Virus record (IMG/VR): IMGVR_UViG_3300014208_000027
Span: 32,001-96,000 of that record
Reading direction: 5' to 3' (one strand)
From: a virus
Lineage: Duplodnaviria > Caudoviricetes
DNA length: 64,000 bases
The position numbers were made by a program, and so were the translations under genes. Positions 18,306 through 38,513 of the stretch are shown here, piece after piece; the first letter of the stretch is position 1, and each line of letters starts with the position of its first letter. The notes under the pieces are model-generated. The model was not told the origin of the DNA. It worked only from the letters and a program-made list of their open reading frames with translations, and ran no database searches.

Positions 18306-18323
18306 GTTTTAAGGGAAAATAAC

Positions 18324-20312: not shown

Positions 20313-20352
20313 TAACGAAAAACATAACCTTTTGCAATCATTATCGTGACCC

Positions 20353-22295: not shown

Positions 22296-22451
22296 ATGCA
22301 TACTTATCGCAAACAATTAGAAGAAATTAAAAAAGGTACTCTTGATTGTACAAAACTTCTTGAACTTGCAGAATCTATGTTATTAAGTTTAGAAGAAGCA
22401 GATGAAGAAATTGAGTATTTGCAAGATGAGATTGGGTACCTCAATGCTTGA
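22296..22451 (+). CDS. 51-aa acidic coiled-coil protein (not in track)
   Basis: SD GAGG; MHTYRKQLEEIKKG...DEIGYLNA; stop overlaps next ATG. Confidence 0.6.
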   Translation: MHTYRKQLEEIKKGTLDCTKLLELAESMLLSLEEADEEIEYLQDEIGYLNA

Positions 22452-23340: not shown

Positions 23341-23741
23341 TGCTGATAGATGTTTCTATTGGTGAAGTATTTGATAAAGTAACGATTTTAGAAATTAAAC
23401 GAGAAAGAATAAAAGATATTGGTAAATTGTTTCACATTGAATACGAATTAAATATTCTTAATGAAACTTTGAGAAATTCTTTTAAAAAAGATTCCCCTAC
23501 ATTTCCAGAAGAACTTTACAATTCTCTCAAGTTAGTAAACGAACAACTTTGGGATCTTGAAGATGTTCTCCGGGAAAAAGAAAAAAATAAGTGTTATGAT
23601 GAAGAGTTTATTAAGTGTGCAGAAGGAGATTCTGTTCTAAATGATAAAAGGTTTCTTATTAAGAATGAAATAAATAATTGGTTTAAATCTGACATTAAAG
23701 AACAAAAGAGCTATAAGCATTTAGATTATAAAAATGAGTAA
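23340..23741 (+). CDS. DUF6165-like protein typical of glycan loci
   Basis: VSIGE..DK.TILEIK...N..LWDLED..R...ND.RF.IK..IN. Confidence 0.7.
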   Translation: MLIDVSIGEVFDKVTILEIKRERIKDIGKLFHIEYELNILNETLRNSFKKDSPTFPEELYNSLKLVNEQLWDLEDVLREKEKNKCYDEEFIKCAEGDSVLNDKRFLIKNEINNWFKSDIKEQKSYKHLDYKNE

Positions 23742-24843
23742 AAAAATGATTCCTCAGATTCAGCCTTATTTTGATCGTTCTGAATGGAAAGAAGTTAAAA
23801 AGGTTCTACGGTCAACCTATCTGACAGAAAATAAGGCTACTGAGACCCTTGAGGAGATGTTTTGTACTTATACAGGTGCCAAGTATGCTATCGCTGTTAA
23901 TAACGCCACTGTGGGGCTATACTGTTGCTTAAAGGCACTTGGTATTGGTGATAATCCTGATGATGAAGTAATTGTACCAAACTTAACTTTTATTGCTACT
24001 GCTAATGCTGTTTTAATGGCTGGTGCAAAAGTAGTTTTACATGACGTTAATTCTTATACATGTCAATTAAGTGTTGATGGGTTAGAAGAAAAAATAAATA
24101 AAAATACTAAAGCAATTATTCCTGTTCATTTATATGGTTATGCTGCCGAGATTGACACCATAAATGATATATGCGAAAGAAATTATATTTTTTGCATTGA
24201 AGATGCGGCACAAGCACTAGGTGTTCTTTATAAGGATAGACATGTAGGAACGCTTGGTACTTTTGGAGTTATTTCTTTATATGGTAACAAGAGTATTACT
24301 ACTGGTGAAGGTGGGATAATTCTTACAAACAGTGAAGAATTGTATAAGAAATGTTATCGTCTTAAAAATCATGGCAGAGAGAAGAAAGGTGTATTTATTC
24401 ATGAAGAGATAGGATACAATTTTTGCTTTACTGATTTGCAAGCTGCAATTGGTATTGCTCAAATGAATAAGTATGATAAAATTCTGAAGAGGAAAGAAGA
24501 AATTTTTCTTAACTATTGTAAAGGATTTGAAGGCATAGAAGAAATTGAATATTTTGATGAGAAAAATACAACTCCAAATTATTGGTTTTCATCATTTAAG
24601 TTCTCCAAAAGTACATCCTTAAAGTTTTATCTTGAAAAAAATGGAATTCAAACAAGAGATTTTTTCTACCCTTTAAGCCTACAACCTTGTTACAAAAACA
24701 GGGAAGATGTTATTATAGATGGTGATTCATTAAACAGTTGTAAGTTATATTCACAAAGTTTATCACTTCCATCATCTTTTAACTTGACAAATAGGCAACA
24801 AAAATATATTATAAGACGCATAAAGGAATTTTACGATACGTGA
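23734..24843 (+). CDS. DegT/DnrJ PLP aminotransferase, GDP-perosamine synthase-like
   Basis: NATVGL, TFIATANA, EDAAQA.G, SLYGNKSITTGEGG (PLP Lys kept). Confidence 0.85.
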   Translation: MSKKMIPQIQPYFDRSEWKEVKKVLRSTYLTENKATETLEEMFCTYTGAKYAIAVNNATVGLYCCLKALGIGDNPDDEVIVPNLTFIATANAVLMAGAKVVLHDVNSYTCQLSVDGLEEKINKNTKAIIPVHLYGYAAEIDTINDICERNYIFCIEDAAQALGVLYKDRHVGTLGTFGVISLYGNKSITTGEGGIILTNSEELYKKCYRLKNHGREKKGVFIHEEIGYNFCFTDLQAAIGIAQMNKYDKILKRKEEIFLNYCKGFEGIEEIEYFDEKNTTPNYWFSSFKFSKSTSLKFYLEKNGIQTRDFFYPLSLQPCYKNREDVIIDGDSLNSCKLYSQSLSLPSSFNLTNRQQKYIIRRIKEFYDT

Positions 24844-26018
24844 TTAAGCTTGTTCAAAATTCTATATCGAAAGAAGAAATAAATTCCCTTTGTGAGTGGT
24901 TACAAACAGATCCGCGTCTCACTAAAGGGGAGTTAACTGTTCAATTTGAAAAAGAATTTGCAGAATTTGTTGGATCTAAGCATGCTGTTTTTGTCAATTC
25001 AGGTTCTTCTGCTAACTTGATAGCGTTGTATACTCTTTTATTGCGTTATTTTCCAGACTACCAAGAATATAGGGAAAAAATAAAAGTTATTGTTCCTGCT
25101 CTTTCTTGGATCACTACTGTAAGCCCGGTAATTCAATTTGGAATGCAACCGATTCTTTGCGATTGTGATAGAGCAACTCTTGGGTTAGATGTTGAGCACC
25201 TAGAAAGATTAATACTTCAACACAATCCGAAAGTTGTTATGTGTGTACATGTTTTGGGTTGGCCAGCAGATATTGTTAAAATTAGAAATATGTGTGAACA
25301 CTATGGCGCACTTTTGATTGAAGATACATGCGAAAGCATGGGTTGTCGGTGGAATAATAAGTGTCTTGGAACAGCAGGAAATGTTGGTACGTATTCTTTT
25401 TATTATGGTCATTTAGCTACCACTATTGAAGGTGGAATGCTTGTGACTAATGATGAAGCAATATATGATCTCGCTATTATGCTTCGTTCCCATTCTTGGC
25501 TTCGTGAATTTTCCGCAGAGAAACAAAAAAAACTTTATGATTTGTATGGGTTAGACGAATTTCAAGGATTATTTTCTTTCTTCTTTCCAGGGTTTAATCT
25601 TCGGTCAACGGATTTACAAGCTTTTCTAGGCTTGGGTCAATTAAAAAGACTTCCTGCGATGAATGAACAACGCATGGAAAATACAAAATTATATGATAGG
25701 CTAATTGAGAATGATTTTTGGAAAGTGAACATGTCAAGAGAAGCTTATACGGCTAGTCAGGCATATCCAATTATTACAAGGACTCCAAAACAAAGGAAAA
25801 AAATAGTTGAAGATTTAAAGGAAAATGGAGTTGAAACTAGACCATTGATTGCAGGTTCAATAGGAAGACAACCGTTTTGGATTGACAGATTTGGAGTTAC
25901 TAATTTAAAGATGGCGGATCTTGTTCATAACAATGGACTCTACGTACCGAACAATCATCAAATTACTGAAGAAGAAATAAAAAAAGTTTGCAGCGTTGTT
26001 AATAGGAACATTTTATGA
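24840..26018 (+). CDS. ColD-like sugar-nucleotide 3-dehydratase (DegT fold, Lys-to-His)
   Basis: NSGSSANL, EDTCES.G, SFYYGHLATTIEGGM (His at the Lys position). Confidence 0.8.
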   Translation: MIKLVQNSISKEEINSLCEWLQTDPRLTKGELTVQFEKEFAEFVGSKHAVFVNSGSSANLIALYTLLLRYFPDYQEYREKIKVIVPALSWITTVSPVIQFGMQPILCDCDRATLGLDVEHLERLILQHNPKVVMCVHVLGWPADIVKIRNMCEHYGALLIEDTCESMGCRWNNKCLGTAGNVGTYSFYYGHLATTIEGGMLVTNDEAIYDLAIMLRSHSWLREFSAEKQKKLYDLYGLDEFQGLFSFFFPGFNLRSTDLQAFLGLGQLKRLPAMNEQRMENTKLYDRLIENDFWKVNMSREAYTASQAYPIITRTPKQRKKIVEDLKENGVETRPLIAGSIGRQPFWIDRFGVTNLKMADLVHNNGLYVPNNHQITEEEIKKVCSVVNRNIL

Positions 26019-26752
26019 TACACAATGAAGAAAAGTTTATTTTATCTAGAGGAAAGAAAAAACTTGTTTCTGTTTTAATCCCGTCTAGAGGTAGAATTGA
26101 TAAGTTATTAGAAGTTATTGATAATGTTGTTGAGAAGAGTGCAGATGTTAATAAAATTGAGATATTGATTAGGTTTGATTCAGATGATTTTCAGAGTATT
26201 GAAAAAATAAAAGATCTACCATTTAATAAAGTGGATATATATGTTTTAATTGGAGAAAGATTTAGGGGATATAGAGACTTACATTTCTTCGTTAATGAAT
26301 TAAGTTCTTTGTCAAGAGGCGAGTTTATTTTTCTTTTCAACGATGATTCCTATATTGTTTCAGAGAAGTGGGAAAATAATTTGGAACCATTTTCTAATCA
26401 AGTAGTCATTCTTAAGCCAGAAACAAAGGATGATGCTTCAAATTATAATACCTTCCCAATAATTAACAGAAGTGTTTTTGAAATTTTACATCATTTTTCT
26501 TTACAAACTCACAATGACACATGGATGCAAGAAATTGGAAGAAATTTAAACATTGAACGTTCTTTGTACGGGTTAGAAATTTTTCATGATCGCCCTGACA
26601 ATCCAAATAAGAAAACTTTAGAGGAAGATGAGACCTGGGTAAATGGTAGAAAAACGTGGAATACTTCTAGGGTTGAATTTGATGAGGGAAAGTATCAAAT
26701 TCTAAGACAACAAGATATAATGGATATATTAAATTACTATAAGTCCAAATGA
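26015..26752 (+). CDS. Glycosyltransferase GT2-like (GT-A)
   Basis: SVLIPSRGR, FDSDD, FNDD, NDTW. Confidence 0.8.
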   Translation: MIHNEEKFILSRGKKKLVSVLIPSRGRIDKLLEVIDNVVEKSADVNKIEILIRFDSDDFQSIEKIKDLPFNKVDIYVLIGERFRGYRDLHFFVNELSSLSRGEFIFLFNDDSYIVSEKWENNLEPFSNQVVILKPETKDDASNYNTFPIINRSVFEILHHFSLQTHNDTWMQEIGRNLNIERSLYGLEIFHDRPDNPNKKTLEEDETWVNGRKTWNTSRVEFDEGKYQILRQQDIMDILNYYKSK

Positions 26753-28020
26753 ATTTAGATAAAGTAATACTAGTAATTCCTGTTGATAGAATAGATTTTA
26801 ATCCCTTAACCTATCCTCCTTTGGGTTTATTATATATCGCCGCTGCGTTGGAAAAAGAATTTGTTGTTGAAGTCTTTGACATGCGCGAAGAGTATAATAC
26901 GATTGATAAAATTGGAGAAGCTGATTATTATGGATTTACAGCAACAACTTCTCAATTTGATGATGTTTTATATTGTGTCAATTTCTTGAAGAGAAAGAAT
27001 AAAAAATCTTTTTATTTTATTGGAGGGTCTCACGCTTCTTGGATGTATGAAGAAATAAAACACGATTTTAATGCGACGATAGTCGGGGAAGCTGACTTAC
27101 AGATTATTGATATTTTAAAGAGCAAAAAAGAAGGAGTTTTCTATTGTAATCTTAAAAAAGAAAATTTGGACGAGATTCCTTTTCCAGCAAGACACTTGAT
27201 GTTGTCAAATAGAATTGTTAGTAGTGATTTGTGGGATGGAGAGGGATATCAAAAAGAAAATTGTTCTACATTAGCTACGACTTTAATAACTTCAAGAGGA
27301 TGTCCATGGAAGTGTTCCTTTTGTGCAAATATACCGCAGAAAGTGAATTATAGATCTGAAGAAAATATAATTAAAGAAATTGAAAAAATTATTGAAGAGT
27401 ATACGTGTAGAAATTTTAGATTTCTTGATGATAATTTTTTAATGAACAAAAAGCGTCTTTTCCAATTGTTGCCAATGTTGAAGACTAAGAACATTTCTTA
27501 TAGATGTTCTGGTCGGTCTGACTTAATTGATGATAATATTTGCAAGCTTTTGTATGAAAGTGGGTGTAAAGAAATTGGGTTTGGCGTGGAAACAGCCGAT
27601 GATGAAGTTTTAAAACTGATAAATAAGGGAGAAAGTGTTGAGGAACACGAAAGAGCTATTAAATTAGCTAAACAAAATAATTTAAGAGTTAAGATTTTTA
27701 TGATGGCTGGATTACCCCTGGAGTCGTGGGAAACAATAGAAAAAAATAAAAGATTTATAGAGAAAACTCAACCGGATAAAGTCATTGTTACATTGTTTAC
27801 GCCATATCCTGGAAGTGATGCTTATAGATTCCCTGAAAAATATAAAATCAAAATTAAACAGGATGAGTGGAAATCGTTTTTCCAAACATATCCATCAAAG
27901 TCTATCATTTCAACAGATAAATGTTCATCAGAAGAATTAACTGAACATCATGAAACTATGATAAATTTTTTGCTTGATTTTAACAAAAAAAACAAGTATG
28001 ATTTACTAAAACAAAAATAG
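26749..28020 (+). CDS. B12-binding radical SAM enzyme (class B)
   Basis: PPLGLLYIAA, GG.HAS, GEA; TSRGCPWKCSFC; DDNF. Confidence 0.9.
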   Translation: MNLDKVILVIPVDRIDFNPLTYPPLGLLYIAAALEKEFVVEVFDMREEYNTIDKIGEADYYGFTATTSQFDDVLYCVNFLKRKNKKSFYFIGGSHASWMYEEIKHDFNATIVGEADLQIIDILKSKKEGVFYCNLKKENLDEIPFPARHLMLSNRIVSSDLWDGEGYQKENCSTLATTLITSRGCPWKCSFCANIPQKVNYRSEENIIKEIEKIIEEYTCRNFRFLDDNFLMNKKRLFQLLPMLKTKNISYRCSGRSDLIDDNICKLLYESGCKEIGFGVETADDEVLKLINKGESVEEHERAIKLAKQNNLRVKIFMMAGLPLESWETIEKNKRFIEKTQPDKVIVTLFTPYPGSDAYRFPEKYKIKIKQDEWKSFFQTYPSKSIISTDKCSSEELTEHHETMINFLLDFNKKNKYDLLKQK

Positions 28021-28032: not shown

Positions 28033-29283
28033 ATGGAACAAAAAAAAATTGGTTTCGTAGGGTTAGGGAAGCTTGGTTTGCCTTGTGCTATGGCTATTGA
28101 GCAAGAAGGTGGATACAAAGTCTGTGGATATGATCCCGATCCAAGAGTTGAAGAAACATTGCTAACAAGACAACTTCCGTATAAAGAACATTTAGCTCAA
28201 GACTATTTGGATGAGACCAACATTACTCTTTATGATTCAATTAAATTGGTTGTTCAGAACTCTGACATTATTTTTGTTCCAATTCAAACTCCGCATCTTC
28301 CATTATACGAAGGAGATGTTAGAATTCCTGAAAGTAGAGTGGATTTCGACTATTCTTTTCTAAAAACTGGTATTGAAGAAATTTCTAAATGTATTTTAGA
28401 AGAAAAAAAAGAAAAGGTGGTAATTATTATTTCCACGGTTCTTCCAGGAACAGTTGAAAGAGAACTAAAACCGCTTCTTAATCAATATGTTAAATTGTGT
28501 TATAACCCATTTTTTATTGCCATGGGAACGTGTATACCAGATTTTCTTAACTCAGAATTTATTCTTTTCGGAGTTGATGATTCCGTTGCTGCAGGAATTG
28601 CAGAAAATTTTTATAAAACGATAACTAAATCTCCGTTTTATAAAACAACAGTTAAAAATGCAGAATTGGTAAAGGTCGCATACAATACATTCATTGGAAT
28701 GAAAATTGTTTTTGCAAATGTTTTGATGGAAATTTGTCACAAAACTGGAGCTGACGTTGATGCTGTTACAAATGCTTTAAAATTGGCAAATAGAAGAATT
28801 ATTAGCGGAAATTATTTTTCTGGCGGGATGGGCGATGGTGGAGGTTGTCATCCAAGGGATAACATTGCGCTTTCGTGGCTGGCAAAGAAATTAAACTTGA
28901 GTTACGACTGGTTCGAGGGTGTAATGGTTGCGAGAGAAAATCAAACTGAGTGGCTGGCAACTCTCATGGAACAATATGATTTGCCGAAAGTCATTCTAGG
29001 AAAGGCATTCAAGCCAGAAACAAATTTGACTCTTGGAAGTCCTTCGGTTCTGTTAAAGAATATTTTGGTTGAAAAAGGATATACTGTCACGATTTTTGAT
29101 CCTTTTGTTGATGGTGTCGTTCCAAAATTTGAGAAAAGCGTATTTTTGGTTGGAACCAAACATGAATGTTTTAAGGATTATGAATTTCCCGTTGGGTCTG
29201 TTGTCATTGATCCATGGAGATATATTCCAGATAAAGCTGGAATAACTATTATTAGAGTTGGAGAAGGAAAAGATGGAAATTGA
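28033..29283 (+). CDS. ugd: UDP-glucose/GDP-mannose 6-dehydrogenase family
   Basis: GLGKLG, IQTP, STVLPGT, YNP.F, AELVK..YN, GGGCHPRD. Confidence 0.85.
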   Translation: MEQKKIGFVGLGKLGLPCAMAIEQEGGYKVCGYDPDPRVEETLLTRQLPYKEHLAQDYLDETNITLYDSIKLVVQNSDIIFVPIQTPHLPLYEGDVRIPESRVDFDYSFLKTGIEEISKCILEEKKEKVVIIISTVLPGTVERELKPLLNQYVKLCYNPFFIAMGTCIPDFLNSEFILFGVDDSVAAGIAENFYKTITKSPFYKTTVKNAELVKVAYNTFIGMKIVFANVLMEICHKTGADVDAVTNALKLANRRIISGNYFSGGMGDGGGCHPRDNIALSWLAKKLNLSYDWFEGVMVARENQTEWLATLMEQYDLPKVILGKAFKPETNLTLGSPSVLLKNILVEKGYTVTIFDPFVDGVVPKFEKSVFLVGTKHECFKDYEFPVGSVVIDPWRYIPDKAGITIIRVGEGKDGN

Positions 29284-30109
29284 TAAGGTAAAAACTTTCT
29301 GGAACAACAGACCTTGCAATATCAAGCACTCTGTAAATGATATCGGAACAAAAAAATATTTTGATGAGGTGGAACAGAGGCGATATTTTGTTGAACCTCA
29401 CATTAGAACTTTCGCAGAATTTGATAAATGGAAAGGAAAAAGGGTTTTAGAAATTGGATGTGGCATAGGAACAGATACAATCAATTTCGCTCGTTATGGA
29501 GCTTTTGTTGATGCTGTTGATATTTCAGAGAAATCTTTAAATATTGCTATAAACAGAGCAAATATTTTTCAACTAGATCATAAAATAAATTTCTTTTTAC
29601 TAAGTGCAGAGGAATTAACAAAAAACCCTGTTATTTCTAAAACGAAATATGATTTAATATATTCTTTTGGGGTATTGCATCACACACCAAATCCATTTCT
29701 GGCTTTTTCTGAAATTAAAAAACTGTGTTGTCCTGAGACTGTTATTAAAATAATGCTTTATAATAAGTTCTCGATAAGATCGTTAGAAATGTTTTTTGAA
29801 CAAGTTTTCAATAGTGGGTTAGGTAATATCAAAAAATTTGCTTCAAACAACTCTGAGGCGCAAAAAGGATGTCCGTATACGTATGTATACGGAAGTAGAG
29901 AGATAAAAAAAGTGCTTTCCGGTTTTGGATTTGATTGTTCGGTTTCTATAAAACATATTTTTCCATATAATATATTTGAGTATATTAAACATAATTACGT
30001 TAAAAAGTGGTATTATAGATACATGCCTAGTTTTGTTTATGATTTTTTGTATAATTGTTTTGGTTGGCACTTGTTAATAGATGCTCATGTTCGGAATGAT
30101 AATGTTTGA
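29273..30109 (+). CDS. Class I SAM-dependent methyltransferase
   Basis: VLEIGCGIGTD, DLIYSFGVLHHTP. Confidence 0.85.
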   Translation: MEIDKVKTFWNNRPCNIKHSVNDIGTKKYFDEVEQRRYFVEPHIRTFAEFDKWKGKRVLEIGCGIGTDTINFARYGAFVDAVDISEKSLNIAINRANIFQLDHKINFFLLSAEELTKNPVISKTKYDLIYSFGVLHHTPNPFLAFSEIKKLCCPETVIKIMLYNKFSIRSLEMFFEQVFNSGLGNIKKFASNNSEAQKGCPYTYVYGSREIKKVLSGFGFDCSVSIKHIFPYNIFEYIKHNYVKKWYYRYMPSFVYDFLYNCFGWHLLIDAHVRNDNV

Positions 30110-30827
30110 AATAGATTCTGAATTAAACCTTATTTTAGAAAATAAACGAGTTGCTCTCATAGGACCATCTAATCATCTAATTGGGTCAGGTCTTGGAAAA
30201 ATTATTGATTCCTACGATGTTGTTTGCAGAATCAATGAGTCATACGCTTATGGTTATGAAAAGGATTATGGGGAAAGAACAGATATAGTTTTTCATAATA
30301 TGAATTCTTTGGATGGAATACCTCAAATTGAAGAAGAGTTTAAAGAAAAATGGGAAGAAATTAAAAAAATTAAATACTATGTGTGTCCTCAATATAAAAT
30401 TGATGATTTGAACATTAATTTGATTGAGGCATTTAGAAAAATAAACTTTTTAAATATTCCGTTTTATTATATAGGTGACAGAAATTACGACTTGCTTCGT
30501 TCTCGTTTTAGTTTAAAACCATCTACTGGTTTGATTTCTTCTGAAATGCTTCTTGAATACAATATTCGAGAATTATTCATCTCGGGACTATCGTTTTATT
30601 ATGGAAAAAATCTAATAGCCGAAGGCGTGCATCCAGCTCATTATGTTGGGAAACTTCCTCAAGGAGGACCAACAAATGGTCACAATTTTCTAAAAGAAAT
30701 GGAATATTTTTCCTTGCTAATGATAAAGAATTGTAATAGAACTAGAATTGACTCTTTTTTGTATAAAATTCTTCGCTTGAATGGTTTCTTCGTAAGAAGT
30801 GATGTTTGTATGATCAAAGATATTTGA
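30081..30827 (+). CDS. GT29 sialyltransferase-like protein
   Basis: Sialylmotif L RVALIGPSNHLIGSGLGKIIDSYDVVCRIN..YGYEKDYGERTD; motif S PSTG....LFISGLSFY; motif VS HNFLKE. Confidence 0.8.
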   Translation: MLMFGMIMFEIDSELNLILENKRVALIGPSNHLIGSGLGKIIDSYDVVCRINESYAYGYEKDYGERTDIVFHNMNSLDGIPQIEEEFKEKWEEIKKIKYYVCPQYKIDDLNINLIEAFRKINFLNIPFYYIGDRNYDLLRSRFSLKPSTGLISSEMLLEYNIRELFISGLSFYYGKNLIAEGVHPAHYVGKLPQGGPTNGHNFLKEMEYFSLLMIKNCNRTRIDSFLYKILRLNGFFVRSDVCMIKDI

Positions 30828-30844
30828 TAAAAAGATAAAATCTT

Positions 30845-31735
30845 ATGAACGCAAAATGTTATATGTGTAATGAAAATTCGCTGTTTAAAAGATCTGAAAG
30901 AGTTAGAGATAATGAATTTCTTAATGTTTTTCAGTGTTCTTCTTGTGGGTTAATCTCTCTTTCTGATTTTTCTCATATTTCTAATGAGTTTTACGAATCG
31001 TCTACTATGAGAAGGGGAGATGCAGAGCAGCAAATTGCTGAGATTTTAGAGGCTTCAAAAAATGATGATGAAAGAAGATTTGAATATGTTAAAAAAAAGA
31101 AAGAATTATTTAAGAAAGAAAAAGTTGTTCTAGATTATGGTTGTGGTGCCGGAGGGTTTTTATTAAATCTTAGCAAACTTATTGATAAAAGCAAATTGTA
31201 TGGAATTGAAATTGAAGACATGACACGGCGTTTTTTAAATGATTCTGGAATAAAAGTTGTTAAAAGCGTTGAAGAATATAAAAAAAATGTAGGGCAAAAA
31301 GTTGATTTTGTTTCAATGTTCCATGTGCTAGAACATCTTCCAGATCCCAAGAAGTGTTTAATTGAATTGAGAAGTATTTTAACGGATACTGCAAAAATAT
31401 TTATAGAGGTTCCAAACGCCGATGATGCTTTGTTGTCAATTTATAAATGTGAATCGTTTGCCAATTTTGTATTTTGGTCGCCCCATTTGTATACGTTCAA
31501 TATTAAGAGTTTTGAAATAATGGCAAAGGAAACTGGGTATAGTTTGAAAAATATTAAACAAATTCAAAGATATCCGATTTCAAATCATTTATACTGGTTA
31601 AAAGAAGGCAAGCCAAACGGCCATAAGATGTTTGACATTTTTAATTACGATAGGCTATCCTATGAATACGAAAAAGTCTTGCGAAAAAATAAAATATGTG
31701 ATACTTTAATGGTGGAATTTGAAGTTCAACCTTAA
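30845..31735 (+). CDS. SAM methyltransferase with N-terminal Zn ribbon
   Basis: CYMC..CSSC; VLDYGCGAG; HVLEHL.DP; EVPN. Confidence 0.85.
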   Translation: MNAKCYMCNENSLFKRSERVRDNEFLNVFQCSSCGLISLSDFSHISNEFYESSTMRRGDAEQQIAEILEASKNDDERRFEYVKKKKELFKKEKVVLDYGCGAGGFLLNLSKLIDKSKLYGIEIEDMTRRFLNDSGIKVVKSVEEYKKNVGQKVDFVSMFHVLEHLPDPKKCLIELRSILTDTAKIFIEVPNADDALLSIYKCESFANFVFWSPHLYTFNIKSFEIMAKETGYSLKNIKQIQRYPISNHLYWLKEGKPNGHKMFDIFNYDRLSYEYEKVLRKNKICDTLMVEFEVQP

Positions 31736-31763
31736 AGTCGTTCAAAAAGGGAAATGATAGATT

Positions 31764-32600
31764 ATGAGAAATAAAAGAGTTTTTGTTATCGCAGAAATAG
31801 GGTTAAATGCAAATGGAGATGTTAGTATTGCTAAGGATTTAATTCTTAAATCTAAAGAATCTGGATGTGATGCAGTTAAATTCCAAAAACGAACAATTGA
31901 AGCGGTTTATTCTAAAGAAGAATTAGATTATTTTAGGGAAAGTCCTTGGGGTAATACAAATAGAAAGCAAAAAAACGGGCTTGAGTTTAGTAGAGAACAA
32001 TATGATGAAATAGACCAGTATTGTAAGCAAATAAACTTTTTGTGGTTTGCTTCCGCGTGGGATACTGAAAGTCAAGTTTTTCTAAGAAAATATGATCTGT
32101 TATATAACAAAATTGCCTCGGCTCTTTTGACACATAAAAAGTTGTTAAATATGGTTGCAGAAGAAAAGAAATATACTTTTATTTCAACAGGCATGAGCGA
32201 TTTAACACAGATCCGTGAGGCAGTAGAAGTTTTCAGATCTAAGGATTGTGAATTTGAATTGTTGCATTGCAACTCAACGTATCCAATGAAAAATGAAGAT
32301 GCAAATTTAAGAGTAATAAAAACTTTAAGAAACGAATTTGGGTGTGATGTTGGATATAGTGGTCATGAAACGGGAAGGGTTGTATCAGTAGCAGCAGTGG
32401 CTCTTGGGGCAACATCTATTGAACGACATATTACTTTGGATAAAACTATGTACGGGTCAGATCAAGCTGCTTCAATAGAAATTTCTGAATTAAAAAGACT
32501 TGTCGAAGACATTCGACAAGTTGAATTGGCTTTAGGTTCTTCAGAAAAGAGGGTCTTGGAAACAGAAATTCCAATTATGAAGAAACTGCGAAAGAATTGA
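31764..32600 (+). CDS. neuB: N-acetylneuraminate (nonulosonate) synthase, short form without SAF domain
   Basis: IAEIGLN.NG, AVKFQK, KIAS, ISTGM, LHCNSTYP, GYSGHE, IERHITLD. Confidence 0.9.
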   Translation: MRNKRVFVIAEIGLNANGDVSIAKDLILKSKESGCDAVKFQKRTIEAVYSKEELDYFRESPWGNTNRKQKNGLEFSREQYDEIDQYCKQINFLWFASAWDTESQVFLRKYDLLYNKIASALLTHKKLLNMVAEEKKYTFISTGMSDLTQIREAVEVFRSKDCEFELLHCNSTYPMKNEDANLRVIKTLRNEFGCDVGYSGHETGRVVSVAAVALGATSIERHITLDKTMYGSDQAASIEISELKRLVEDIRQVELALGSSEKRVLETEIPIMKKLRKN

Positions 32601-33301
32601 TGATTTCTGCTTTAATACCCGCTCGCGGCGGAAGCAAGGGGATTCCTAAAAAAAATATTTTGAATATATTCGGGTATCCATTGATTGCGTATTCCATTTC
32701 TGTTTGTAAAAAATGTAAAGATATAGATAAAGTTTACGTTTCTACTGACGATGAAGAAATTTCTGCCATTTCGGAGTTTTATGGAGCGACTGTTCTTAGA
32801 AGGCCAAGTGAGCTTGCAATGGATCTTTCAAATGATTATGGTGTTGTAAAACATTTTTTTGATTGTTTCCCGTGTGAAGAAGTTTCTTACATTAGACCAA
32901 CAACTCCTGCAAGAAACGTTGAAACACTCTCCAGTTGTATATCTTTTTATAAGAATAACAAATATAAATTAACTGGAGTTAGATCGGTTCATGAGTTGTC
33001 TGAGTCTCCATATAAATTTATAAAAATTGAAGATAGTGGATATTGTGGGGGTTTTTTTGAAAGTTTTAATGGGATAAAACAATATACAAATTTGCCAAGA
33101 CAGATGTTTCCAAAGGCGTACCACCCTAATGGTTATATCGATATACTTAAGAAAGAAACTATAGAAAAAGGAAGTGATTTTGGTGATAAAATTCTTCCAT
33201 TTTTGACTAGGAGAGTTTGCGAATTAGATATAGAAGAAGATATTGAATTCGTAAAAAATGATTTGGAAAGAAACGTAACTTTTGATATTTTTGAATCATG
33301 A
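32597..33301 (+). CDS. neuA: CMP-nonulosonate synthetase (cytidylyltransferase)
   Basis: IPARGGSKGIPKKN, VSTDD, RP.ELA.D, PT.P.R, NGYI, D...D. Confidence 0.9.
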   Translation: MMISALIPARGGSKGIPKKNILNIFGYPLIAYSISVCKKCKDIDKVYVSTDDEEISAISEFYGATVLRRPSELAMDLSNDYGVVKHFFDCFPCEEVSYIRPTTPARNVETLSSCISFYKNNKYKLTGVRSVHELSESPYKFIKIEDSGYCGGFFESFNGIKQYTNLPRQMFPKAYHPNGYIDILKKETIEKGSDFGDKILPFLTRRVCELDIEEDIEFVKNDLERNVTFDIFES

Positions 33302-34548
33302 TAAAAACTAAAAATAGAATAATTCAACCGGGGTTTGATGTTGAATCTTGTAGAATTCTTTCAGAAGAAAGAAAGAACATTGAAGATTATTCCGCTTGTT
33401 CTGAAATTCCGGTTTTATGGGATAAAGCGAAAAACTACTCTGTATATGACAACCTAGGAAACAAATGGATAGATTTAACTTCTGGAATTTTTGTCGCGAA
33501 TGCCGGACATTCAAATCCAAAAATCAAAAAAGCAATTAGAGAATGTCTTAAGAAAGATTTGTTATATTCTTTTTGTTATAATAATGAAATACGAGTGAAG
33601 TTTATAAAGAAACTTTTATCAATATCTCCTTCTTGTTTTAATAAAGCAATTATTTCTAATTCTGGGTCTGAAGCAACAGATACGGCTTACAAGTTGATAA
33701 AGGTATGGGGTAGACAATTTTCTCCACACAAAAATAGAATAATTTCATTTAAAGGCGCTTATCACGGAAGGTGTTTGAGTAGTTGTTTTCTTAGTAGATC
33801 AAAAGAGTATTCTGAATGGGCAGGCTTTGAGAACGATGTTACTTTCTTAGATTTTCCAGAAAGAGATGAAGATTTCCCGAGAGAATCTATAGGTGAAAAT
33901 GTAGCTGCGTTTGTAATTGAAACATATCAAGGCTGGAGTGCGTCGTTTTTACCAATTCAATATATGAAACAATTATATGAGTATGCTAAAGAGAAAGACG
34001 TTCTTATTGTTTTTGATGAGATTCAATCTGGGTTCTATCGAACTGGGAAGTTATATGGTTATATGAATTACGGCGAATATTTGGAGCCAGATATCATTAC
34101 TCTTGGCAAAGGTATTTCCTCATCGCTCCCAATGTCCGCTGTTTTGAGCAGAAAAGAAATTGTAGATATGGACAAAGGCATGGATTACTCTGGAACACAT
34201 CCAGGCGATCCTATTTGTTGTTATGCTGCTTTAGCAAATTTGGAGTTTCTTCATGAAAGTGTTTTCCAAAGAAAACTTAAAAACAAAATTAAAGTATTTT
34301 CTAAAATTAAAGAAATAGAAAAATATAATTGTGTGCAAAAAGTAAATGTCTTTGGTATGGTTGCCGGAATAATTTTTAGTTCAAAAGAGATTGCGGATAG
34401 AGTTGTGTATGGATGTATAAATAATGGAGTTTTCCCCGTGTATACTTATAAAAATTCTATAAAACTTGGACCACCTCTTACGATAAGTAATTCTGCAATA
34501 AAAGAAGCTTTTGGTGTTTTGGAAACGGAAATTAAAAAACATGAGTAG
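33298..34548 (+). CDS. Class III PLP aminotransferase
   Basis: D..GN.WIDL.SG, NSGSEA, AYHGR, FDEIQSG..RTG, PDIITLGKG. Confidence 0.85.
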   Translation: MIKTKNRIIQPGFDVESCRILSEERKNIEDYSACSEIPVLWDKAKNYSVYDNLGNKWIDLTSGIFVANAGHSNPKIKKAIRECLKKDLLYSFCYNNEIRVKFIKKLLSISPSCFNKAIISNSGSEATDTAYKLIKVWGRQFSPHKNRIISFKGAYHGRCLSSCFLSRSKEYSEWAGFENDVTFLDFPERDEDFPRESIGENVAAFVIETYQGWSASFLPIQYMKQLYEYAKEKDVLIVFDEIQSGFYRTGKLYGYMNYGEYLEPDIITLGKGISSSLPMSAVLSRKEIVDMDKGMDYSGTHPGDPICCYAALANLEFLHESVFQRKLKNKIKVFSKIKEIEKYNCVQKVNVFGMVAGIIFSSKEIADRVVYGCINNGVFPVYTYKNSIKLGPPLTISNSAIKEAFGVLETEIKKHE

Positions 34549-35197
34549 CATTTTAAAGTCTTCAAAATATCTTGAGGTTACCTATGAGAAAAGAGGCGTA
34601 GGATATCCTCGGGCTCTTTCAGGTTGGATTAAAAAGAATATTTTCAAGAAAACGGGTCGGTTACTTGATGTTGGTTATGGTCATGGGGATTATTTGCGTG
34701 CTTTTTCAGACTTACAATATAATGTTTGTGGAGCAGATCTTTCTCCGACTCTTATTCGTCCGTTTGATTGTAGAATAGTTGATATCGAAGAAAGACAATA
34801 CCCAAAAGAAGAATTTGATTTTGTATTTTCTAAATCCGTTATAGAACACGTAAAAAATGTTGACAATGCTACAAAGTTTCTGTATGATAGTCTTAAAGTA
34901 GGAGGAAAACTCGTTGTTATGACTCCATCTTGGGAATATACAAGTTTTGGCCCGTTCTATAATGATCACACTCACGTAACTCCATTTACAAAAACTTCTC
35001 TAGAAAATATATTGAAGATGCATAATTTCAAGAATATTCAAGTCGATTATTTCTATCAACTTCCGTTTGTTTGGAAATATCCATTCTTGAAATATTTTTG
35101 CAAACTTATCAATTTTTTAAAAATTCCATACAAAGATTCTAAATTGATTAGATTTTCTAGAGAAGTTATGTTGCTTGCAATTGCGGACAAATTATAA
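34541..35197 (+). CDS. Class I SAM methyltransferase
   Basis: LLDVGYG.G, FDFVFSKSVIEHV, DHTHV.PFT. Confidence 0.85.
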   Translation: MSSILKSSKYLEVTYEKRGVGYPRALSGWIKKNIFKKTGRLLDVGYGHGDYLRAFSDLQYNVCGADLSPTLIRPFDCRIVDIEERQYPKEEFDFVFSKSVIEHVKNVDNATKFLYDSLKVGGKLVVMTPSWEYTSFGPFYNDHTHVTPFTKTSLENILKMHNFKNIQVDYFYQLPFVWKYPFLKYFCKLINFLKIPYKDSKLIRFSREVMLLAIADKL

Positions 35198-35198
35198 A

Positions 35199-35603
35199 AT
35201 GAAGATTAGACATGTCGGACTTGTTGTTAAGAACTTGGGAGAGTCTATCCTGTTTTATGAGTCAATCGGTTTTAGGGTTTTTAGTAACGAAATTGAACAA
35301 GGAAATCATATTTCCAATTTTTTCAGCGAAGAAGGGTTACAAGTTCATATAGCAAAACTTAAAAATGACTTTGGAGAGTGTTTGGAACTTTTGTGGTTTG
35401 GTAACGGCACAAAAAAGAAAAAAAATAGCTTGAAAAGTCTTGGACTCACGCATATTGCGCTAACCGTAAGAGACAGTGGAGACCTGTATAGCAGTTTTAA
35501 AAAATGTTGCGAAGTGCAAACAACGCCCACTGGTCACAAAGTTCTTTTCGTGCAAGATCCCAATGGCGTTTTTCTAGAGCTTGTTCAGGATCCAAGATGC
35601 TAA
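35199..35603 (+). CDS. VOC/glyoxalase-family protein (epimerase-like)
   Basis: RHVGLVV.NL..S..FY, LEL, HIAL.V, DPNG..LELV. Confidence 0.85.
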   Translation: MKIRHVGLVVKNLGESILFYESIGFRVFSNEIEQGNHISNFFSEEGLQVHIAKLKNDFGECLELLWFGNGTKKKKNSLKSLGLTHIALTVRDSGDLYSSFKKCCEVQTTPTGHKVLFVQDPNGVFLELVQDPRC

Positions 35604-36388
35604 ACGGCCTAGCAAACATCAACATAGAACTGACTGACATTTGTAACAAAAAATGTTGGATGTGTGGTCGGCGCAAGAGAGAAAAGCAATATCCAGATAT
35701 CATCAAGTCATACGGTTATATGGATTTTTCTTTAGTTGAACAAATTTCTAAACAAGTTCCCGCAAATATTATGGTTCAATTCCATAATAATGGTGAGGCA
35801 TTTTTGTACCCTCGTTTTGGGGAAGCAATTAGTTTGTTTGGGAAGCAAATTAAAAATGTTGTTACCAATGGGAAACTTCTTCTTGAAAAATATGATGAGA
35901 TAGTTAATAACCTTGATACGATAGCAATTTCTGTTTTTGAGAGTGACCCAGAAGCAGAAGAACAATATAAAATTGTTAACGAATTTGTGTCAAGAAAGGG
36001 TTTGAATAAGCCACTTATGATTATTAGAGCAAATGGAAATGTTGATATCCGCAGATATGAGCAGATGGGTTTGAAGGTTGCAAGGAGAATCTTACATGCT
36101 CCAGAAGGCTCGTTTAACTATGTTGGAAAGAATCCAACCATTCCAGAACACGGTATATGTTTAGATTTTCTTACGCACCTTGCAATTAGTAAAAATGGCG
36201 ATGTTTCAATTTGTGTTAGATATGATCCGAATAGAAAAGGTGTTCTTGGAAATATCAAAAATAATTCATTAGAAGAATTGTGGAATTCTGAATTGAGAAT
36301 GGAATGGATGGGATGTCATAAACAAGGTTGCAGAGATAAAATTCCTTTATGCTCCGGTTGTGAATTTTATGGAGTACCGACACAATAG
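35597..36388 (+). CDS. Radical SAM/SPASM-domain protein (start set at ATG 35597)
   Basis: ELTDICNKKCWMC; GE..L.P; TNG; C-terminal C..DG.VSIC..GNI..SLEE.W..C..C. Confidence 0.85.
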   Translation: MLNGLANINIELTDICNKKCWMCGRRKREKQYPDIIKSYGYMDFSLVEQISKQVPANIMVQFHNNGEAFLYPRFGEAISLFGKQIKNVVTNGKLLLEKYDEIVNNLDTIAISVFESDPEAEEQYKIVNEFVSRKGLNKPLMIIRANGNVDIRRYEQMGLKVARRILHAPEGSFNYVGKNPTIPEHGICLDFLTHLAISKNGDVSICVRYDPNRKGVLGNIKNNSLEELWNSELRMEWMGCHKQGCRDKIPLCSGCEFYGVPTQ

Positions 36389-36408: not shown

Positions 36409-37314
36409 ATGATGATTAAAAATTTTGATATAACAATAGAACTTATCGTAGATGCTATGCGAAATCAAGCTTTAGAAGCACACACCTCTAAGGCAGAGGT
36501 TGACATATCAGGGGGAGTAGATAGTGCTGTTGTTGCGGCATTATCTTGTAGAGCGTTTGGCAGGGAGAATGTAATTGGAGTTTACAGCTCTATTAATTCT
36601 TCTGACTCTTCACGTCGTCTTGCAAAAATGGTCGCTGACAAGTTTAAATTCCATTTTATTGAGCTAGATCTTTCCGAAGCTTACCGACAAATCACAATGC
36701 AAGTTATGGTTTCTTTTTGGAAAGCTGGTTTGGTTTGTCCGAATCAAGGAGACGTTGATTCTAAAAAAACATATGGTGGACTTAGAAGTTGTTTGCGTGC
36801 TCCTGTTGGAAGATTTATAAATAGGATGTTCGGCGGCGGAATACGAGAAGGTACTGGTAATCGCGATGAAGATGAACTGATTCGTTTTTATCAGAAAGGT
36901 GGAGATGGAGAAGTTGACAGTAATTGGATCGAAGGTTTGTTTAAGGGTGAGGTTTGGGAACTTGCGAAACATTTAGGAGTCCCTGATGAAGTTATCAACG
37001 CAACGCCAACACCTGATTTATGGGGTGGAGAGGTTCACAGTGATGAGAAAGAACTTGAAGACATCACTGGGGTGAAATTGACTTACACACGTCCTGGTGG
37101 ACCAATGGGAACGATTGAATGGGCAAGTCGAGAGAATTCGGAGAATGACTGTATCATAAATCAAGATCTCGACTTGAATGTTTTTGGTTATGATGAGAAG
37201 CAGCTTAAAATCATTAATGCAATGCGGAAATTAGAAAAATCAAGTCGACACAAGGGTTGTATGCCTCCGTATATTTGTAGAGAGGTTCTTATTGAAAAAG
37301 GAGCTGTGGAATGA
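36409..37314 (+). CDS. nadE: NH3-dependent NAD+ synthetase
   Basis: ISGGVDSAVV, R...R, GTGN.DE, FY.K.GDG.VD, L.K.EV..LAK.LG, PTPDLW, DE.E. Confidence 0.85.
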   Translation: MMIKNFDITIELIVDAMRNQALEAHTSKAEVDISGGVDSAVVAALSCRAFGRENVIGVYSSINSSDSSRRLAKMVADKFKFHFIELDLSEAYRQITMQVMVSFWKAGLVCPNQGDVDSKKTYGGLRSCLRAPVGRFINRMFGGGIREGTGNRDEDELIRFYQKGGDGEVDSNWIEGLFKGEVWELAKHLGVPDEVINATPTPDLWGGEVHSDEKELEDITGVKLTYTRPGGPMGTIEWASRENSENDCIINQDLDLNVFGYDEKQLKIINAMRKLEKSSRHKGCMPPYICREVLIEKGAVE

Positions 37315-38513
37315 AGGTTTTGTTCGCTAATTTTTTTAATGATGAAGCTTACGGAATGAGAATTTTGCATTCTATTGTTTCAGAAAGGTATGATTGTAAA
37401 ATTCTTTTCATTAAAGAAAATAATGAACAATTAATAACGAAAGTTATTTCTAATTACTCTCCTGATGTGTTGTGTGTCAGTCTTACTTCCCCTAATTTTT
37501 GTTTGTACAAAAAACTTTATGAGGGTATTAGAAAATCTATGAATGGTGGTTTGATTGTTCTGGGTGGTTGGCATCCCACATTAAACCCAAATTCCTGTGC
37601 TCCATATTGTGATGTTGTTGTTCAAGGTGAGGCAGAAAAAAATATACTGAAGATTCTTGATGATATAGAAAGAAAATCTTTTTTAAATTTATATACGTTT
37701 TCGTCGCTTTCTAAAGATATTAATCACCCTCTTTTTGTATTTAATGGGAATAATTGCATAACAATTGAAAAAGGACAAATTCTTTTCGGTGAACCTTATT
37801 CTAGAAACGAACGCTATGGAACAATGATGGGTAGAGGTTGCCCTTATAGTTGTACTTATTGTTCTAATTCATTTATGAAAGAAAAATATAATAACTGGAC
37901 GAAAATTAGATATAGAAACTTTGAAAAGGTTTTGGAAGAACTTTTAGTGGTTCGTAAATTGTTTCCAAATATTAAAAAAATAAACTTCTATGATGAGGTA
38001 TTCTTTCAGACAGAACAGTATGATTCTTTTTTAAGGCAATATAAGCAGGAGATTGGTCTACCATTTTTTTGTATGTTTTACCCTGGAACTGTTTCTGAGC
38101 CTATGGTAGAAAAATTAAAAGAAGCAGGAATGGTCGGAGTATGGTTGGGTGTTCAATCTGGATCTGAGAGAGTTAGGAGACACGTCTTTGAAAGACGATA
38201 TTCAAACGAGAAACTAATGAAACAGATTCTCATGTTTAAAAAACATGACGTTGATGTAAGATATGATTTTATTTTCAGTAATCCGTTTGAAACCAAGGAA
38301 GAATATCAAGAGACAATACAGTTAATAAAAACATTTCCAAAGCCATTTTCCATTAATATGTTTGAACTTAAGTGGTTTCCAAATACAAAAATAACAAAAA
38401 TGGCTTTGGAAAGTGGTTATTCAATAACTACAGAAGATGAAATATTTTATGAAAACCCTTCATACTTGATAGATGAAGAAAAACAAAAAGAAATCTTACA
38501 GGAAATCGGTTAG
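37311..38513 (+). CDS. B12-binding radical SAM enzyme (class B)
   Basis: GGWHPT..P, GEAE; GRGCPYSCTYC; DE.F; GVQSGSERVR. Confidence 0.9.
   Translation: MKVLFANFFNDEAYGMRILHSIVSERYDCKILFIKENNEQLITKVISNYSPDVLCVSLTSPNFCLYKKLYEGIRKSMNGGLIVLGGWHPTLNPNSCAPYCDVVVQGEAEKNILKILDDIERKSFLNLYTFSSLSKDINHPLFVFNGNNCITIEKGQILFGEPYSRNERYGTMMGRGCPYSCTYCSNSFMKEKYNNWTKIRYRNFEKVLEELLVVRKLFPNIKKINFYDEVFFQTEQYDSFLRQYKQEIGLPFFCMFYPGTVSEPMVEKLKEAGMVGVWLGVQSGSERVRRHVFERRYSNEKLMKQILMFKKHDVDVRYDFIFSNPFETKEEYQETIQLIKTFPKPFSINMFELKWFPNTKITKMALESGYSITTEDEIFYENPSYLIDEEKQKEILQEIG

Follow-up and report, generated by a model that had tools for sequence, protein, structure and literature searches.

A soluble GT29-like glycosyltransferase within a conserved viral cassette for a putative nonulosonate in a groundwater jumbo phage

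Introduction

The occurrence in one viral genome of neighbouring genes that resemble a sialyltransferase, a nonulosonate synthase and a CMP-nonulosonate synthetase raises the question of which sugar these genes provide for and on what it is placed. The window, by which we mean the whole 64,000-nucleotide stretch of DNA analysed here, comprises bases 32001-96000 of a 203,498-bp IMG/VR record rated complete by CheckV. An earlier note on this DNA had assigned the module to a phage, and the record indeed encodes a portal, major head protein, large terminase, tail sheath and baseplate wedge; the carrier is a lytic-type jumbo myovirus of about 203 kb from groundwater. A further glycosyltransferase gene has the portal gene on one side and the major head gene on the other. 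The GT29, NeuB and NeuA genes lie on the + strand in a single tightly packed row, at the positions first proposed for them, and are best explained as serving the final reactions of a nonulosonic-acid branch within a 23-kb glycan-building island (15548-38513).

The GT29-like glycosyltransferase

30081..30827, + strand: soluble GT29-like sialyltransferase-fold glycosyltransferase (248 aa; likely true start 30102)
30144-30293, + strand: motif L (residues 22-71)
30516-30599, + strand: motif S, with PSTG (residues 146-173)
30678-30698, + strand: VS motif, H201-x4-E206
residues 187-190 of the same protein: candidate motif III, HYVG (assignment uncertain)

The public gene call begins this protein at Met8 (nt 30102), which shortens its overlap with the upstream gene to 8 nt. 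Sialylmotifs L, S and VS, previously reported in that order, were all found, and assignment to GT29 was upheld by both profile and predicted fold. Pfam PF00777 matched with an E value of 2.6e-13 (50.4 bits, cut-off 23), the match being confined to profile positions 55-130, which correspond to motif L, while with a profile of six family members both motif L and motif S could be aligned with pig ST3Gal-I (E 2e-9). The top 30 Foldseek matches of the structure model (pLDDT 90.1, pTM 0.90) were GT29 enzymes only, followed by GT42 CstII. Across 50 relatives H201 is near-invariant and G150 and D224 are conserved too; His201 would be the catalytic base.

The same protein had been called 'eukaryote-type', a description that did not survive closer analysis. 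Recent capture of the gene from a eukaryote would agree with animal enzymes being the top PDB matches by sequence and structure, among which there was no bacterial GT29 structure for comparison, yet we regard it as highly improbable. Identity to the animal enzymes ST3Gal-I, ST6Gal1, ST6GalNAc2 and ST8SiaIII is only 15-21 %, and the phage catalytic domain is about 50 residues shorter; the phage protein lacks the stem, the membrane anchor and the disulfide cysteines of motifs L and S, and is cytoplasmic where the animal enzymes reside in the Golgi. The six-member profile, moreover, scores bacterial GT42 CstII almost equally to GT29. This form of GT29, soluble, of about 240 aa, Cys-poor and found mostly in tailed-phage contigs, is also widespread (at least 136 IMG/VR contigs and at least 1413 protein clusters), and its nearest Atlas clusters are mostly of tailed-phage origin. 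Finally, bacterial proteins without the anchor or cysteine pair had already been described by Petit et al. (2018, Sci Rep 8:2946; PMC5811610), who reported 23 GT29-like sequences of untested function, with motifs L, S and VS, from cellular genomes. Phages were not considered in that study, whereas the set of relatives of the phage protein is far larger and mostly viral; within one bacterial phylum, the family was present in no more than 4 of the 301 genomes sampled. Campylobacter CstI and CstII (GT42) scored below GT29 throughout, and the phage protein matches the Pfam model for GT29, not that for GT42.

Predicted synthesis and activation of the sugar

31764..32600, + strand: short NeuB-family nonulosonate synthase (278 aa; PF03102, 247.6 bits)
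32597..33301, + strand: NeuA-type CMP-nonulosonate synthetase (cytidylyltransferase; PF02348, 79 bits)

The synthase had been described as a short form lacking the SAF domain and bearing NANG in place of NHNG, and all of this was confirmed. Its C-terminus falls at the point where 349-aa PDB enzymes continue into the SAF domain, and such a domain is missing from the rest of the genome as well. Its N-terminal motif, AEIGLNANG (residues 10-18), carries Ala for His, a form seen elsewhere among the viral NeuB relatives compared only in the huge phage LR756508.1; GYSGHE and ERH, the His motifs that bind metal, are retained. The best PDB matches were 8h2c and 6ncs, the latter (290 aa; E 4.6e-37) likewise having no C-terminal SAF domain. 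However, 6ncs is a cellular protein, whereas in an alignment of viral short forms a conserved RESPWG-TNR-QK insert proved particular to the viral short-NeuB clade.

The start of NeuA overlaps the NeuB stop codon. Its proposed role as the CMP-activating enzyme is supported by the Pfam score and by its best PDB match, the CMP-Neu5Ac synthetase 6ifd (E 1.4e-30, residues 5-223). NeuB scored under the NCBIfam equivalog cut-offs for NeuB and PseI, and NeuA, with 99 bits, under that for PseF. Neither protein reaches the cut-off of any NCBIfam equivalog, so that these scores do not point to one particular sugar.

The earlier proposal that the module is self-sufficient was contradicted by the rest of the genome, in which there was no match above threshold to Epimerase_2 (NeuC/LegG), no match to Polysacc_synt_2, no SDR epimerase/dehydratase and no membrane export part. 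With no precursor or export genes in the phage, the host must provide the hexose precursor and carry out any export.

A conserved viral cassette

22402..23340, + strand: GT-B glycosyltransferase, A075L-like (GT114; AF2 pLDDT 91.6)
23340..23741, + strand: DUF6165 protein, conserved in the cassette
23734..24843, + strand: DegT-family aminotransferase (PF01041, 332.7 bits), closest to LegC and PseC
24840..26018, + strand: second DegT-family enzyme, closest to RfbH-type dehydrase
26015..26752, + strand: GT2-like protein (weak Pfam match), conserved in the phage G003 cassette
28033..29283, + strand: nucleotide-sugar 6-dehydrogenase
29258..30109, + strand: SAM methyltransferase MT1, immediately upstream of GT29
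30845..31735, + strand: SAM methyltransferase MT2, between GT29 and NeuB
33298..34548, + strand: class-III (omega) aminotransferase (PF00202, 234 bits), adjoining NeuA in viral cassettes
34511..35197, + strand: SAM methyltransferase MT3, member of the conserved cassette
35175..35603, + strand: VOC/glyoxalase-fold protein (PF00903)
36409..37314, + strand: NadE-like PP-loop amidotransferase

GT29, NeuA, NeuB and VOC genes, often with two DegT genes, form a conserved viral cassette. An independent contig whose GT29 is 36 % identical has the order GT29-NeuA-short NeuB-VOC-SDR-MT, and in the nearest relatives NeuA begins directly after GT29. A phage of 157 kb, 94 % complete and lacking any match to the capsid protein of the source phage, retains 13 island genes in the same order. 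That this phage keeps the NadE-like gene makes a sugar amidating enzyme more likely than NAD synthetase. NeuB, NeuA, aminotransferase and VOC genes recur together on many viral contigs at 46-65 % identity, in keeping with the suggestion that the aminotransferase, VOC and methyltransferase genes belong to the pathway. The VOC gene is the steadiest companion of viral short NeuB and NeuA, adjoining NeuB in L002, L010-L012, L016, L018 and 19 of 80 viral NeuB loci. The class-III aminotransferase, present in L018 and in 14 of the 80 (46-50 % identity), matched acetylornithine, ornithine and GABA aminotransferases in the PDB and is probably a tailoring enzyme. The first DegT gene scored 287 bits against the LegC family and 263 bits against PseC, each under its cut-off, and is kept upstream of GT29 in L007, L010-L012 and L018. 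GT29-methyltransferase fusions and adjacent pairs were seen in other loci.

The cassette is not invariable. Of the 80 viral loci whose short NeuB is closest, 72 had no GT29-like gene within 8 kb, which makes GT29 one of several possible transferases; pairing of GT29 with NeuB is therefore not obligatory. Conversely, of 80 viral loci recovered with a GT29 profile, 26 had NeuA within 6 kb of GT29 and 14 had NeuB. Both absences would fit a GT29-like protein that uses another CMP-ulosonic acid, for instance a host Kdo-type eight-carbon sugar, or a different donor, and bacterial GT29 domains have been tied to Kdo transfer by inference (PMC13171606). Nevertheless, we consider such a donor very unlikely, for GT29 abuts NeuA and NeuB in the source phage and its closest relatives, and NeuA neighbours GT29 at 26 of the 80 loci though NeuB and NeuA are very rare across phages: of 50,697 phage records on deposit, just 3 contain NeuB. 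The expectation that the system was undescribed seems to hold for the literature searched, in which no description of this gene set in phages was found; it is not unique to this genome, as the module occurs in many uncultured phages.

Bacterial NeuBAC, legionaminic and pseudaminic acid (Leg/Pse) systems, including those for flagellin glycosylation, share with the island a NeuB-family synthase, a CMP-synthetase and a LegC/PseC-like aminotransferase, all cytoplasmic. The island differs in its SAF-less NeuB, in having no 4,6-dehydratase, acetyltransferase or hydrolysing epimerase, in its constant class-III aminotransferase and VOC partners, and in a transferase that is GT29-like rather than Maf, GT38, GT42, GT52 or GT80.

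Proposed pathway and acceptor

15548-16804, + strand: GT4 gene
18324-20312, + strand: two-domain GT4/GT2-like protein
20353-21750, + strand: two-domain phage-type GT-like protein (its Atlas match is a lead only)

These genes make up the upstream part of the island (15548..21750). Island proteins have at most one hydrophobic segment each and are all predicted to be soluble, and no flippase, polymerase or priming enzyme is encoded in the island. From the observed gene identities, folds, motifs, neighbourhood conservation and absence of precursor and export genes we infer which substrates are used, how tailoring is ordered and what the acceptor is, as follows. The SAF-less NeuB would condense PEP with a six-carbon sugar, which lies beyond the phage's own synthesis and for which the host would supply at least an early precursor, possibly modified by the LegC/PseC-like DegT enzyme, to give a nine-carbon 2-keto-3-deoxy acid. 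NeuA, using CTP, would couple this acid to CMP, and from the resulting donor the GT29-like enzyme would transfer it to a glycan that the remaining glycosyltransferases of the island assemble. The class-III aminotransferase, VOC protein and methyltransferases would tailor the sugar, which, because such enzymes accompany NeuB and NeuA in many viruses, is probably not plain Neu5Ac.

We think it fairly probable that a nonulosonate is made, CMP-activated and transferred in this way and that the acceptor is most likely a structural protein of the phage, which would receive its glycan in the cytoplasm while virions assemble or earlier. This acceptor is suggested by the cytoplasmic nature of all parts, the lack of flippase, polymerase and priming genes and the A075L-like enzyme. 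A075L is a capsid-protein xylosyltransferase that builds the capsid-protein glycan of the chlorovirus PBCV-1 (PMC11571054). The predicted structure of the island protein (22402-23340) matched 8asa, 8avq and 8q8i (Foldseek E 1.9e-13, TM 0.62-0.67, 23-25 % identity), a likeness of fold, not of acceptor. PBCV-1 and mycobacteriophages offer precedents for virus-encoded soluble glycosyltransferases that act in the cytoplasm on virion proteins, and mycobacteriophage capsid and tail proteins bear glycans, as cited in PMC12619734. No acidic nine-carbon sugar is given for either system in the giant-virus glycan review searched, which names only one viral sialyltransferase, that of myxoma virus.

The soluble enzymes could equally work on the cytoplasmic side of the host membrane, with lipid- or nucleotide-linked intermediates of the host as their substrates. 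By the same chemistry the island might then remodel host lipopolysaccharide, capsule, S-layer or flagellin through host priming, flipping and ligation, with superinfection by other phages blocked or the cell surface changed as a consequence. Serotype-changing phage glycosyltransferases are well established, and a phage without precursor genes is already reliant on host sugar metabolism. Bacterial GT29-like genes exist (PMC5811610), one of them in the E. coli K6 capsule locus, where Kdo addition to the capsule has been inferred (PMC13171606). Against this, known seroconverting systems use membrane proteins, of which none was found in the island; it seems a demanding task to work some seven soluble glycosyltransferases into a lipid-linked pathway of the host in the course of a single lytic cycle; and the A075L-like and head-block glycosyltransferases favour virion proteins. 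We therefore hold a host-surface target to be possible but unlikely, and favour cytoplasmic glycosylation of virion proteins.

Phage glycosyltransferases also hypermodify DNA with diverse glycans (bioRxiv 10.1101/2023.12.21.572611), and the island glycan might be destined for phage DNA rather than for proteins or lipids. That report, however, does not mention sialic or CMP-sugar chemistry, and no thymidylate-synthase-like hydroxymethylase was found in the genome; a Tet/JBP search of the genome also gave no match, the control of that search being uninformative. We judge this destination extremely improbable.

Accessory genes

26749..28020, + strand: B12-binding radical SAM enzyme, missing from the G003 cassette
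35504..36388, + strand: radical SAM/SPASM enzyme
37311..38513, + strand: second B12-binding radical SAM enzyme, closing the island

These three genes are accessory. A radical SAM/SPASM gene accompanies NeuB at close range at 7 of the 80 viral loci, and genes like the first B12-binding enzyme adjoin GT29-like genes in two bacterial genomes.

The GT29-like protein and its fold

Animal cells, some pathogens and flagella are the best-known bearers of sialic-acid-type sugars, which cap their surfaces, and GT29 is the family that adds such sugars in animals. The sugar-related genes of the phage form a near gap-free row on the plus strand (15548-38513, here the island) that includes the three genes of principal concern:

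30081-30827, +, GT29-like gene (PF00777, 50.4 bits against a cut-off of 23, E 2.6e-13)
31764-32600, +, NeuB (PF03102, 247.6 bits, full profile 1-241)
32597-33301, +, NeuA (PF02348, 79 bits against a cut-off of 22.6)

The earlier note, made from the sequence alone, had assigned the product of the first gene to GT29, and the PF00777 threshold was indeed passed, by a match limited to profile positions 55-130, which are the motif L part; a genome-wide search with PF00777 returned the same single match. The sialylmotifs L, S and VS are present in the order that had been described, at residues 22-71, 146-173 (with PSTG) and H201-x4-E206, and H201 is near-invariant, being conserved in at least 90% of 50 relatives. 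HYVG at residues 187-190 occupies the place expected for motif III, (H/Y)Y(Y/F/W)(E/D/Q), in a stretch that is poorly conserved in the family and where model confidence is at its lowest (about 68-82). When searched against PDB, the lone sequence matched motif L of pig ST3Gal-I, while a profile of six relatives aligned motifs L and S to the same enzyme (E 2e-9) and also covered Campylobacter CstII, a member of GT42, almost end to end (E 3e-7). An AlphaFold model built from a 50-relative alignment had a pLDDT of 90.1 and a pTM of 0.90, and all 30 of its top Foldseek matches in PDB were animal GT29 enzymes, with CstII next. On the basis of this model the protein is predicted to have the GT-A variant sialyltransferase fold.

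Distribution of relatives and the kind of GT29

The description of the enzyme as eukaryote-type did not hold. A type II membrane topology was not found, there being no hydrophobic segment in the GT29-like protein, and the cysteines of the disulfide between motifs L and S are absent, since cysteine occurs only at 49, 102, 218 and 243, with none at the start of motif L or inside motif S. As the protein has neither the anchor nor the motif L and S cysteines of the Golgi enzymes, and its distribution is mainly viral, the label must be considered wrong. The 23 bacterial GT29 sequences of Petit et al. (PMC5811610) share the anchor-less, cysteine-less form of the phage protein, and the better-fitting description is a soluble GT29-like clade of phages and bacteria, placed between GT42 and eukaryotic GT29.

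An exhaustive HMMER search gave 1413 relative clusters, 328 of them with E < 1e-10, and the best-scoring were mostly single-domain proteins of 220-260 aa; fusions to GT2, sugar O-methyltransferase or discoidin domains and tandem GT29 arrangements also occur. About 80% of the nearest ESM Atlas clusters were labelled 'Viruses, Uroviricota', and a profile search of IMG/VR confirmed at least 136 GT29 relatives, on contigs of up to about 620 kb that included some giant-virus bins. Among bacteria, a profile search found a relative in 4 of 301 genomes sampled from one phylum, that of a Saprospiraceae genome that had a GT29-like match. Two genomes of this phylum (loci L094 and L095) have GT29-like genes flanked by B12-binding radical SAM genes and a methyltransferase gene like that upstream of GT29 in the window (29258-30109), as in the window itself. 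A NeuA-GT29 fusion, which might have served as a 'Rosetta stone', was hinted at by one Atlas cluster; none of ten multi-domain relatives scanned carried a cytidylyltransferase domain, and the fusion is a lead only.

Nothing was found when deposited phage genomes were searched with the island by megablast, or when the GT29 protein was compared by tblastn with 50,697 deposited phage records at E 1e-3. The latter search is judged too insensitive for short motif-level similarity, because a local BLAST later found GT29 ORFs in the huge phage LR756508.1 (484 kb, unannotated). This phage has four GT29 genes, matching nearly all of the Pfam profile (94-112 bits), and beside them lie GDP-fucose genes, a GT10 fucosyltransferase gene and a short NeuB in which NANG is again found:

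L004 (LR756508.1 310772-335581), positions 3981-4835, 9258-11251 and 11253-16074, GT29/short NeuB stretch

A GDP-mannose 4,6-dehydratase and an SDR gene lie beside these GT29 genes, and a GIY-YIG/HTH ORF lies between NeuB and GT29 genes. No NeuA was seen within the stretch of LR756508.1 scanned.

NeuB and NeuA

The NeuB had been described as a short form without a SAF domain and with NANG in place of NHNG, and both features are borne out. The protein has 278 aa, its PDB alignments end at about residue 277-288 of 349, where SAF starts, and the SAF domain PF08666 was found nowhere in the genome by a search whose control was positive in 8 genomes; the NANG substitution is real in the alignment. 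The metal-binding His motifs GYSGHE and IERH are kept, as seen on alignment to PseI (8h2c). Thirteen aligned viral relatives are all 272-299 aa long and viral NeuB-type relatives overall are 267-299 aa, apart from two longer, more distant matches; a conserved RESPWG-TNR-QK insert is common to the closest. A short NeuB already has a solved structure (PDB 6ncs). Several viral cassettes, as follows, have an additional NeuB-like paralogue of still smaller size (238-248 aa, with 23-26% identity to the NeuB of the window), which has no counterpart in the window:

L007, 5458-6192, second NeuB-like paralogue
L008, 7391-8137, second NeuB-like paralogue
L018, 6693-7409, second NeuB-like paralogue

The neighbouring gene, taken earlier to encode a CMP-activating enzyme, does encode a NeuA-type cytidylyltransferase, which matches PF02348 and aligns to 6ifd over residues 5-223 (E 1.4e-30); its N-terminal ARGGSKG-x-KN-type loop is PARGGSKGIPKKN (residues 8-20). 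At the equivalog level NeuB scored below the cut-offs of TIGR03569 (248.5 against 399.65) and TIGR03586 (201.2 against 340.25), and NeuA below that of the PseF model TIGR03584 (99.4 against 205.7), with KdsB models giving weak N-terminal matches only. As both proteins fall below every equivalog cut-off, the sugar cannot be named.

A recurring cassette

Gene neighbourhood indicates that the GT29-like gene, NeuB and NeuA would belong to one system. On an unrelated contig a GT29 gene whose product is 36% identical is followed by NeuA, a 279-aa NeuB, VOC, SDR and methyltransferase genes, and the genes of the closest relatives are arranged DegT-DegT ... GT29-NeuA-NeuB-VOC. Within 6 kb of 80 viral GT29 loci, NeuA was present at 26, NeuB at 14 and DegT genes at 18. 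Approached from the other side, short-NeuB relatives were found on at least 587 viral contigs, and the best 80 of these loci had, within 8 kb, NeuA in 43, VOC in 19, class-III aminotransferase in 14 and methyltransferase in 11, with a GT29-like gene in only 8. Taken together, the counts from the two sides point to NeuB-NeuA-aminotransferase-VOC as a common viral donor-synthesis unit of which GT29 is one transferase partner. Such genes are uncommon in phages generally, NeuB being matched in 3 of 50,697 deposited phage records. It is from the neighbourhood, too, that we suggest a CMP-activated nonulosonic/ulosonic acid as the donor of the GT29-like enzyme.

A capsid protein 60% identical to that of this phage was present in two of five cassette-bearing contigs tested. 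A 157-kb phage (94% complete) without a capsid match keeps 13 island genes in unchanged order, namely those for the A075L-like glycosyltransferase, DUF6165, two DegT proteins, GT2-like, sugar dehydrogenase, NadE-like, GT29, NeuB, NeuA, class-III aminotransferase, methyltransferase and VOC; its GT29-NeuB gap contains a second, shorter NeuB-like gene that is absent from the window. This phage has none of the island's three radical SAM genes and lacks two of its methyltransferase genes, all of which are thus accessory. The NadE-like gene (window 36409-37314) has a counterpart of 29% identity in the same cassette, next to the sugar dehydrogenase gene, and its retention there, where no capsid match was detected, favours a role in sugar-acid amidation over NAD+ synthesis.

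Supply of the sugar precursor

The module had also been proposed to be self-sufficient, and this part of the interpretation is contradicted: a hydrolysing 2-epimerase (NeuC/LegG), an SDR epimerase/dehydratase and a PseB/PglF-type enzyme were all not found in the genome. PF02350 (NeuC/LegG-type) gave only an 11.9-bit chance match, with control genomes positive, and PF01370 and PF02719 gave no match, with controls positive in 11-14 genomes. The product of ORF 22402-23340 was considered as a PseG-like hydrolase, a candidate that would have filled a further step of the pathway, and, when folded (pLDDT 91.6), proved to be an A075L/GT114-like transferase instead. Of the two DegT proteins (23734-24843 and 24840-26018), one has LegC and PseC as its nearest families and the second has the RfbH dehydrase, affinities that hint at a Leg/Pse-like diamino sugar; the keto-sugar substrate of these enzymes must be supplied by the host.

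Genomic setting

The 203,498-bp IMG/VR record, of which the window is bases 32001-96000, is rated complete by CheckV and has a GC content of 34%. It codes for portal, major head protein, large terminase, tail sheath, tail fibre/spike proteins and a T4-type baseplate wedge, and the phage is a tailed jumbo-class myovirus. The baseplate wedge shares 30% identity, across its whole length, with the counterpart in Flavobacterium phage immuto, and about 29-30% with the counterparts in Microcystis phage Mel-JY01 and LR756508.1. Groundwater metagenomes from two separate studies hold identical DNA, and the contigs of the second, being identical to the window, offered zero variation for selection analysis.

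The heptamer CTAWTTA stands just 5' of several virion genes (window 44424, 45827, 50924, 53924 and 61758), and a further copy lies at 15348, about 200 nt 5' of the first island glycosyltransferase gene (15548). This placement hints that the island may be co-expressed with late genes.

The acceptor

The coating of virions or of the host had both been envisaged. Proteins with several membrane segments are absent from the island, and so are a flippase, a polymerase, a transporter and a priming transferase. The ORF at 22402-23340, which stands first in the cassette and is conserved there, has as its best match A075L (E 1.9e-13, TM 0.62-0.67, 23-25% identity), which in PBCV-1 acts as a xylosyltransferase building the N-glycan core of the capsid protein (PMC11571054). 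Outside the window, within 154840-157120 of the whole genome, the portal and major head genes have a glycosyltransferase gene (phrog_13126, E 9e-26) between them, and mycobacteriophage capsid and tail proteins are glycosylated, as cited in PMC12619734. An all-cytoplasmic island, an A075L-like glycosyltransferase, a glycosyltransferase in the head block and the glycosylated virions of mycobacteriophages together lead us to favour virion proteins as the acceptor class, with remodelling of the host surface by the island placed second. Glycosylation of phage DNA by the island has no support: a hydroxymethylase homologue was not found in the genome, and the DNA-glycan paper (bioRxiv 10.1101/2023.12.21.572611) is without CMP-sugar chemistry; a Tet/JBP search of the genome also gave no match, but its control was positive nowhere and the result is uninformative. 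For the favoured virion proteins, a possible glycan acceptor is the product of a 326-aa ORF (genome 154840-155820) just upstream of the phrog_13126 gene; this product has an S/T/P-rich stretch.

Significance

The observation in the earlier note is confirmed and its interpretation partly supported. The kinds of component, the GT29 fold, NeuB and NeuA, are already known; what is new is their widespread setting in tailed phages, the minimal soluble GT29 and a NeuB that lacks SAF and is constantly accompanied by the aminotransferase and VOC. In the literature searched we met no description of a tailed phage making, activating and transferring a sialic-acid-type sugar by itself; GT29 in phages appeared there only as a count in one virome table, and a review of giant-virus glycans named the myxoma virus enzyme as the sole viral sialyltransferase. 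The module is not a one-off: GT29 relatives were found on at least 136 IMG/VR contigs and short-NeuB relatives on at least 587, and conserved cassettes of these genes occur. A broader reading, which we regard as less likely than not, is that tailed phages collectively possess a sialylation-like system. Its parts would be the minimal, soluble GT29 enzymes, forming a clade centred on phages, and a NeuB/NeuA/aminotransferase/VOC cassette, with NeuB free of SAF, that makes a modified nonulosonic acid; this sugar would cap virion-protein glycans. If this is true, a large and overlooked part of GT29 diversity, situated between bacterial GT42 and eukaryotic GT29, would reside in phages, which bears on where eukaryotic sialyltransferases arose. 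Were the product present on virions, phage virion glycosylation would extend to acidic nine-carbon sugars, and adsorption, stability and recognition could be affected. Small soluble GT29 enzymes would also express easily and be attractive for glyco-engineering, and they would fill a data gap on how the eukaryotic sialyltransferases, traced to bacteria by Petit et al. (PMC5811610), originated.

Other genes of the island and its flank

The 465-aa protein encoded at window 20353-21750 has no Pfam match; Atlas features alone liken it to two-domain GT8/GT9/DUF5672-type proteins, which are common in tailed phages, and, again from these features only, its C-terminal half is similar to DUF6165-carrying proteins. 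Directly past the island and an endonuclease VII gene (38548-38967) lies a TnpB gene (39458-40633) with OrfB_IS605 and Cas12f-like TNB domains.
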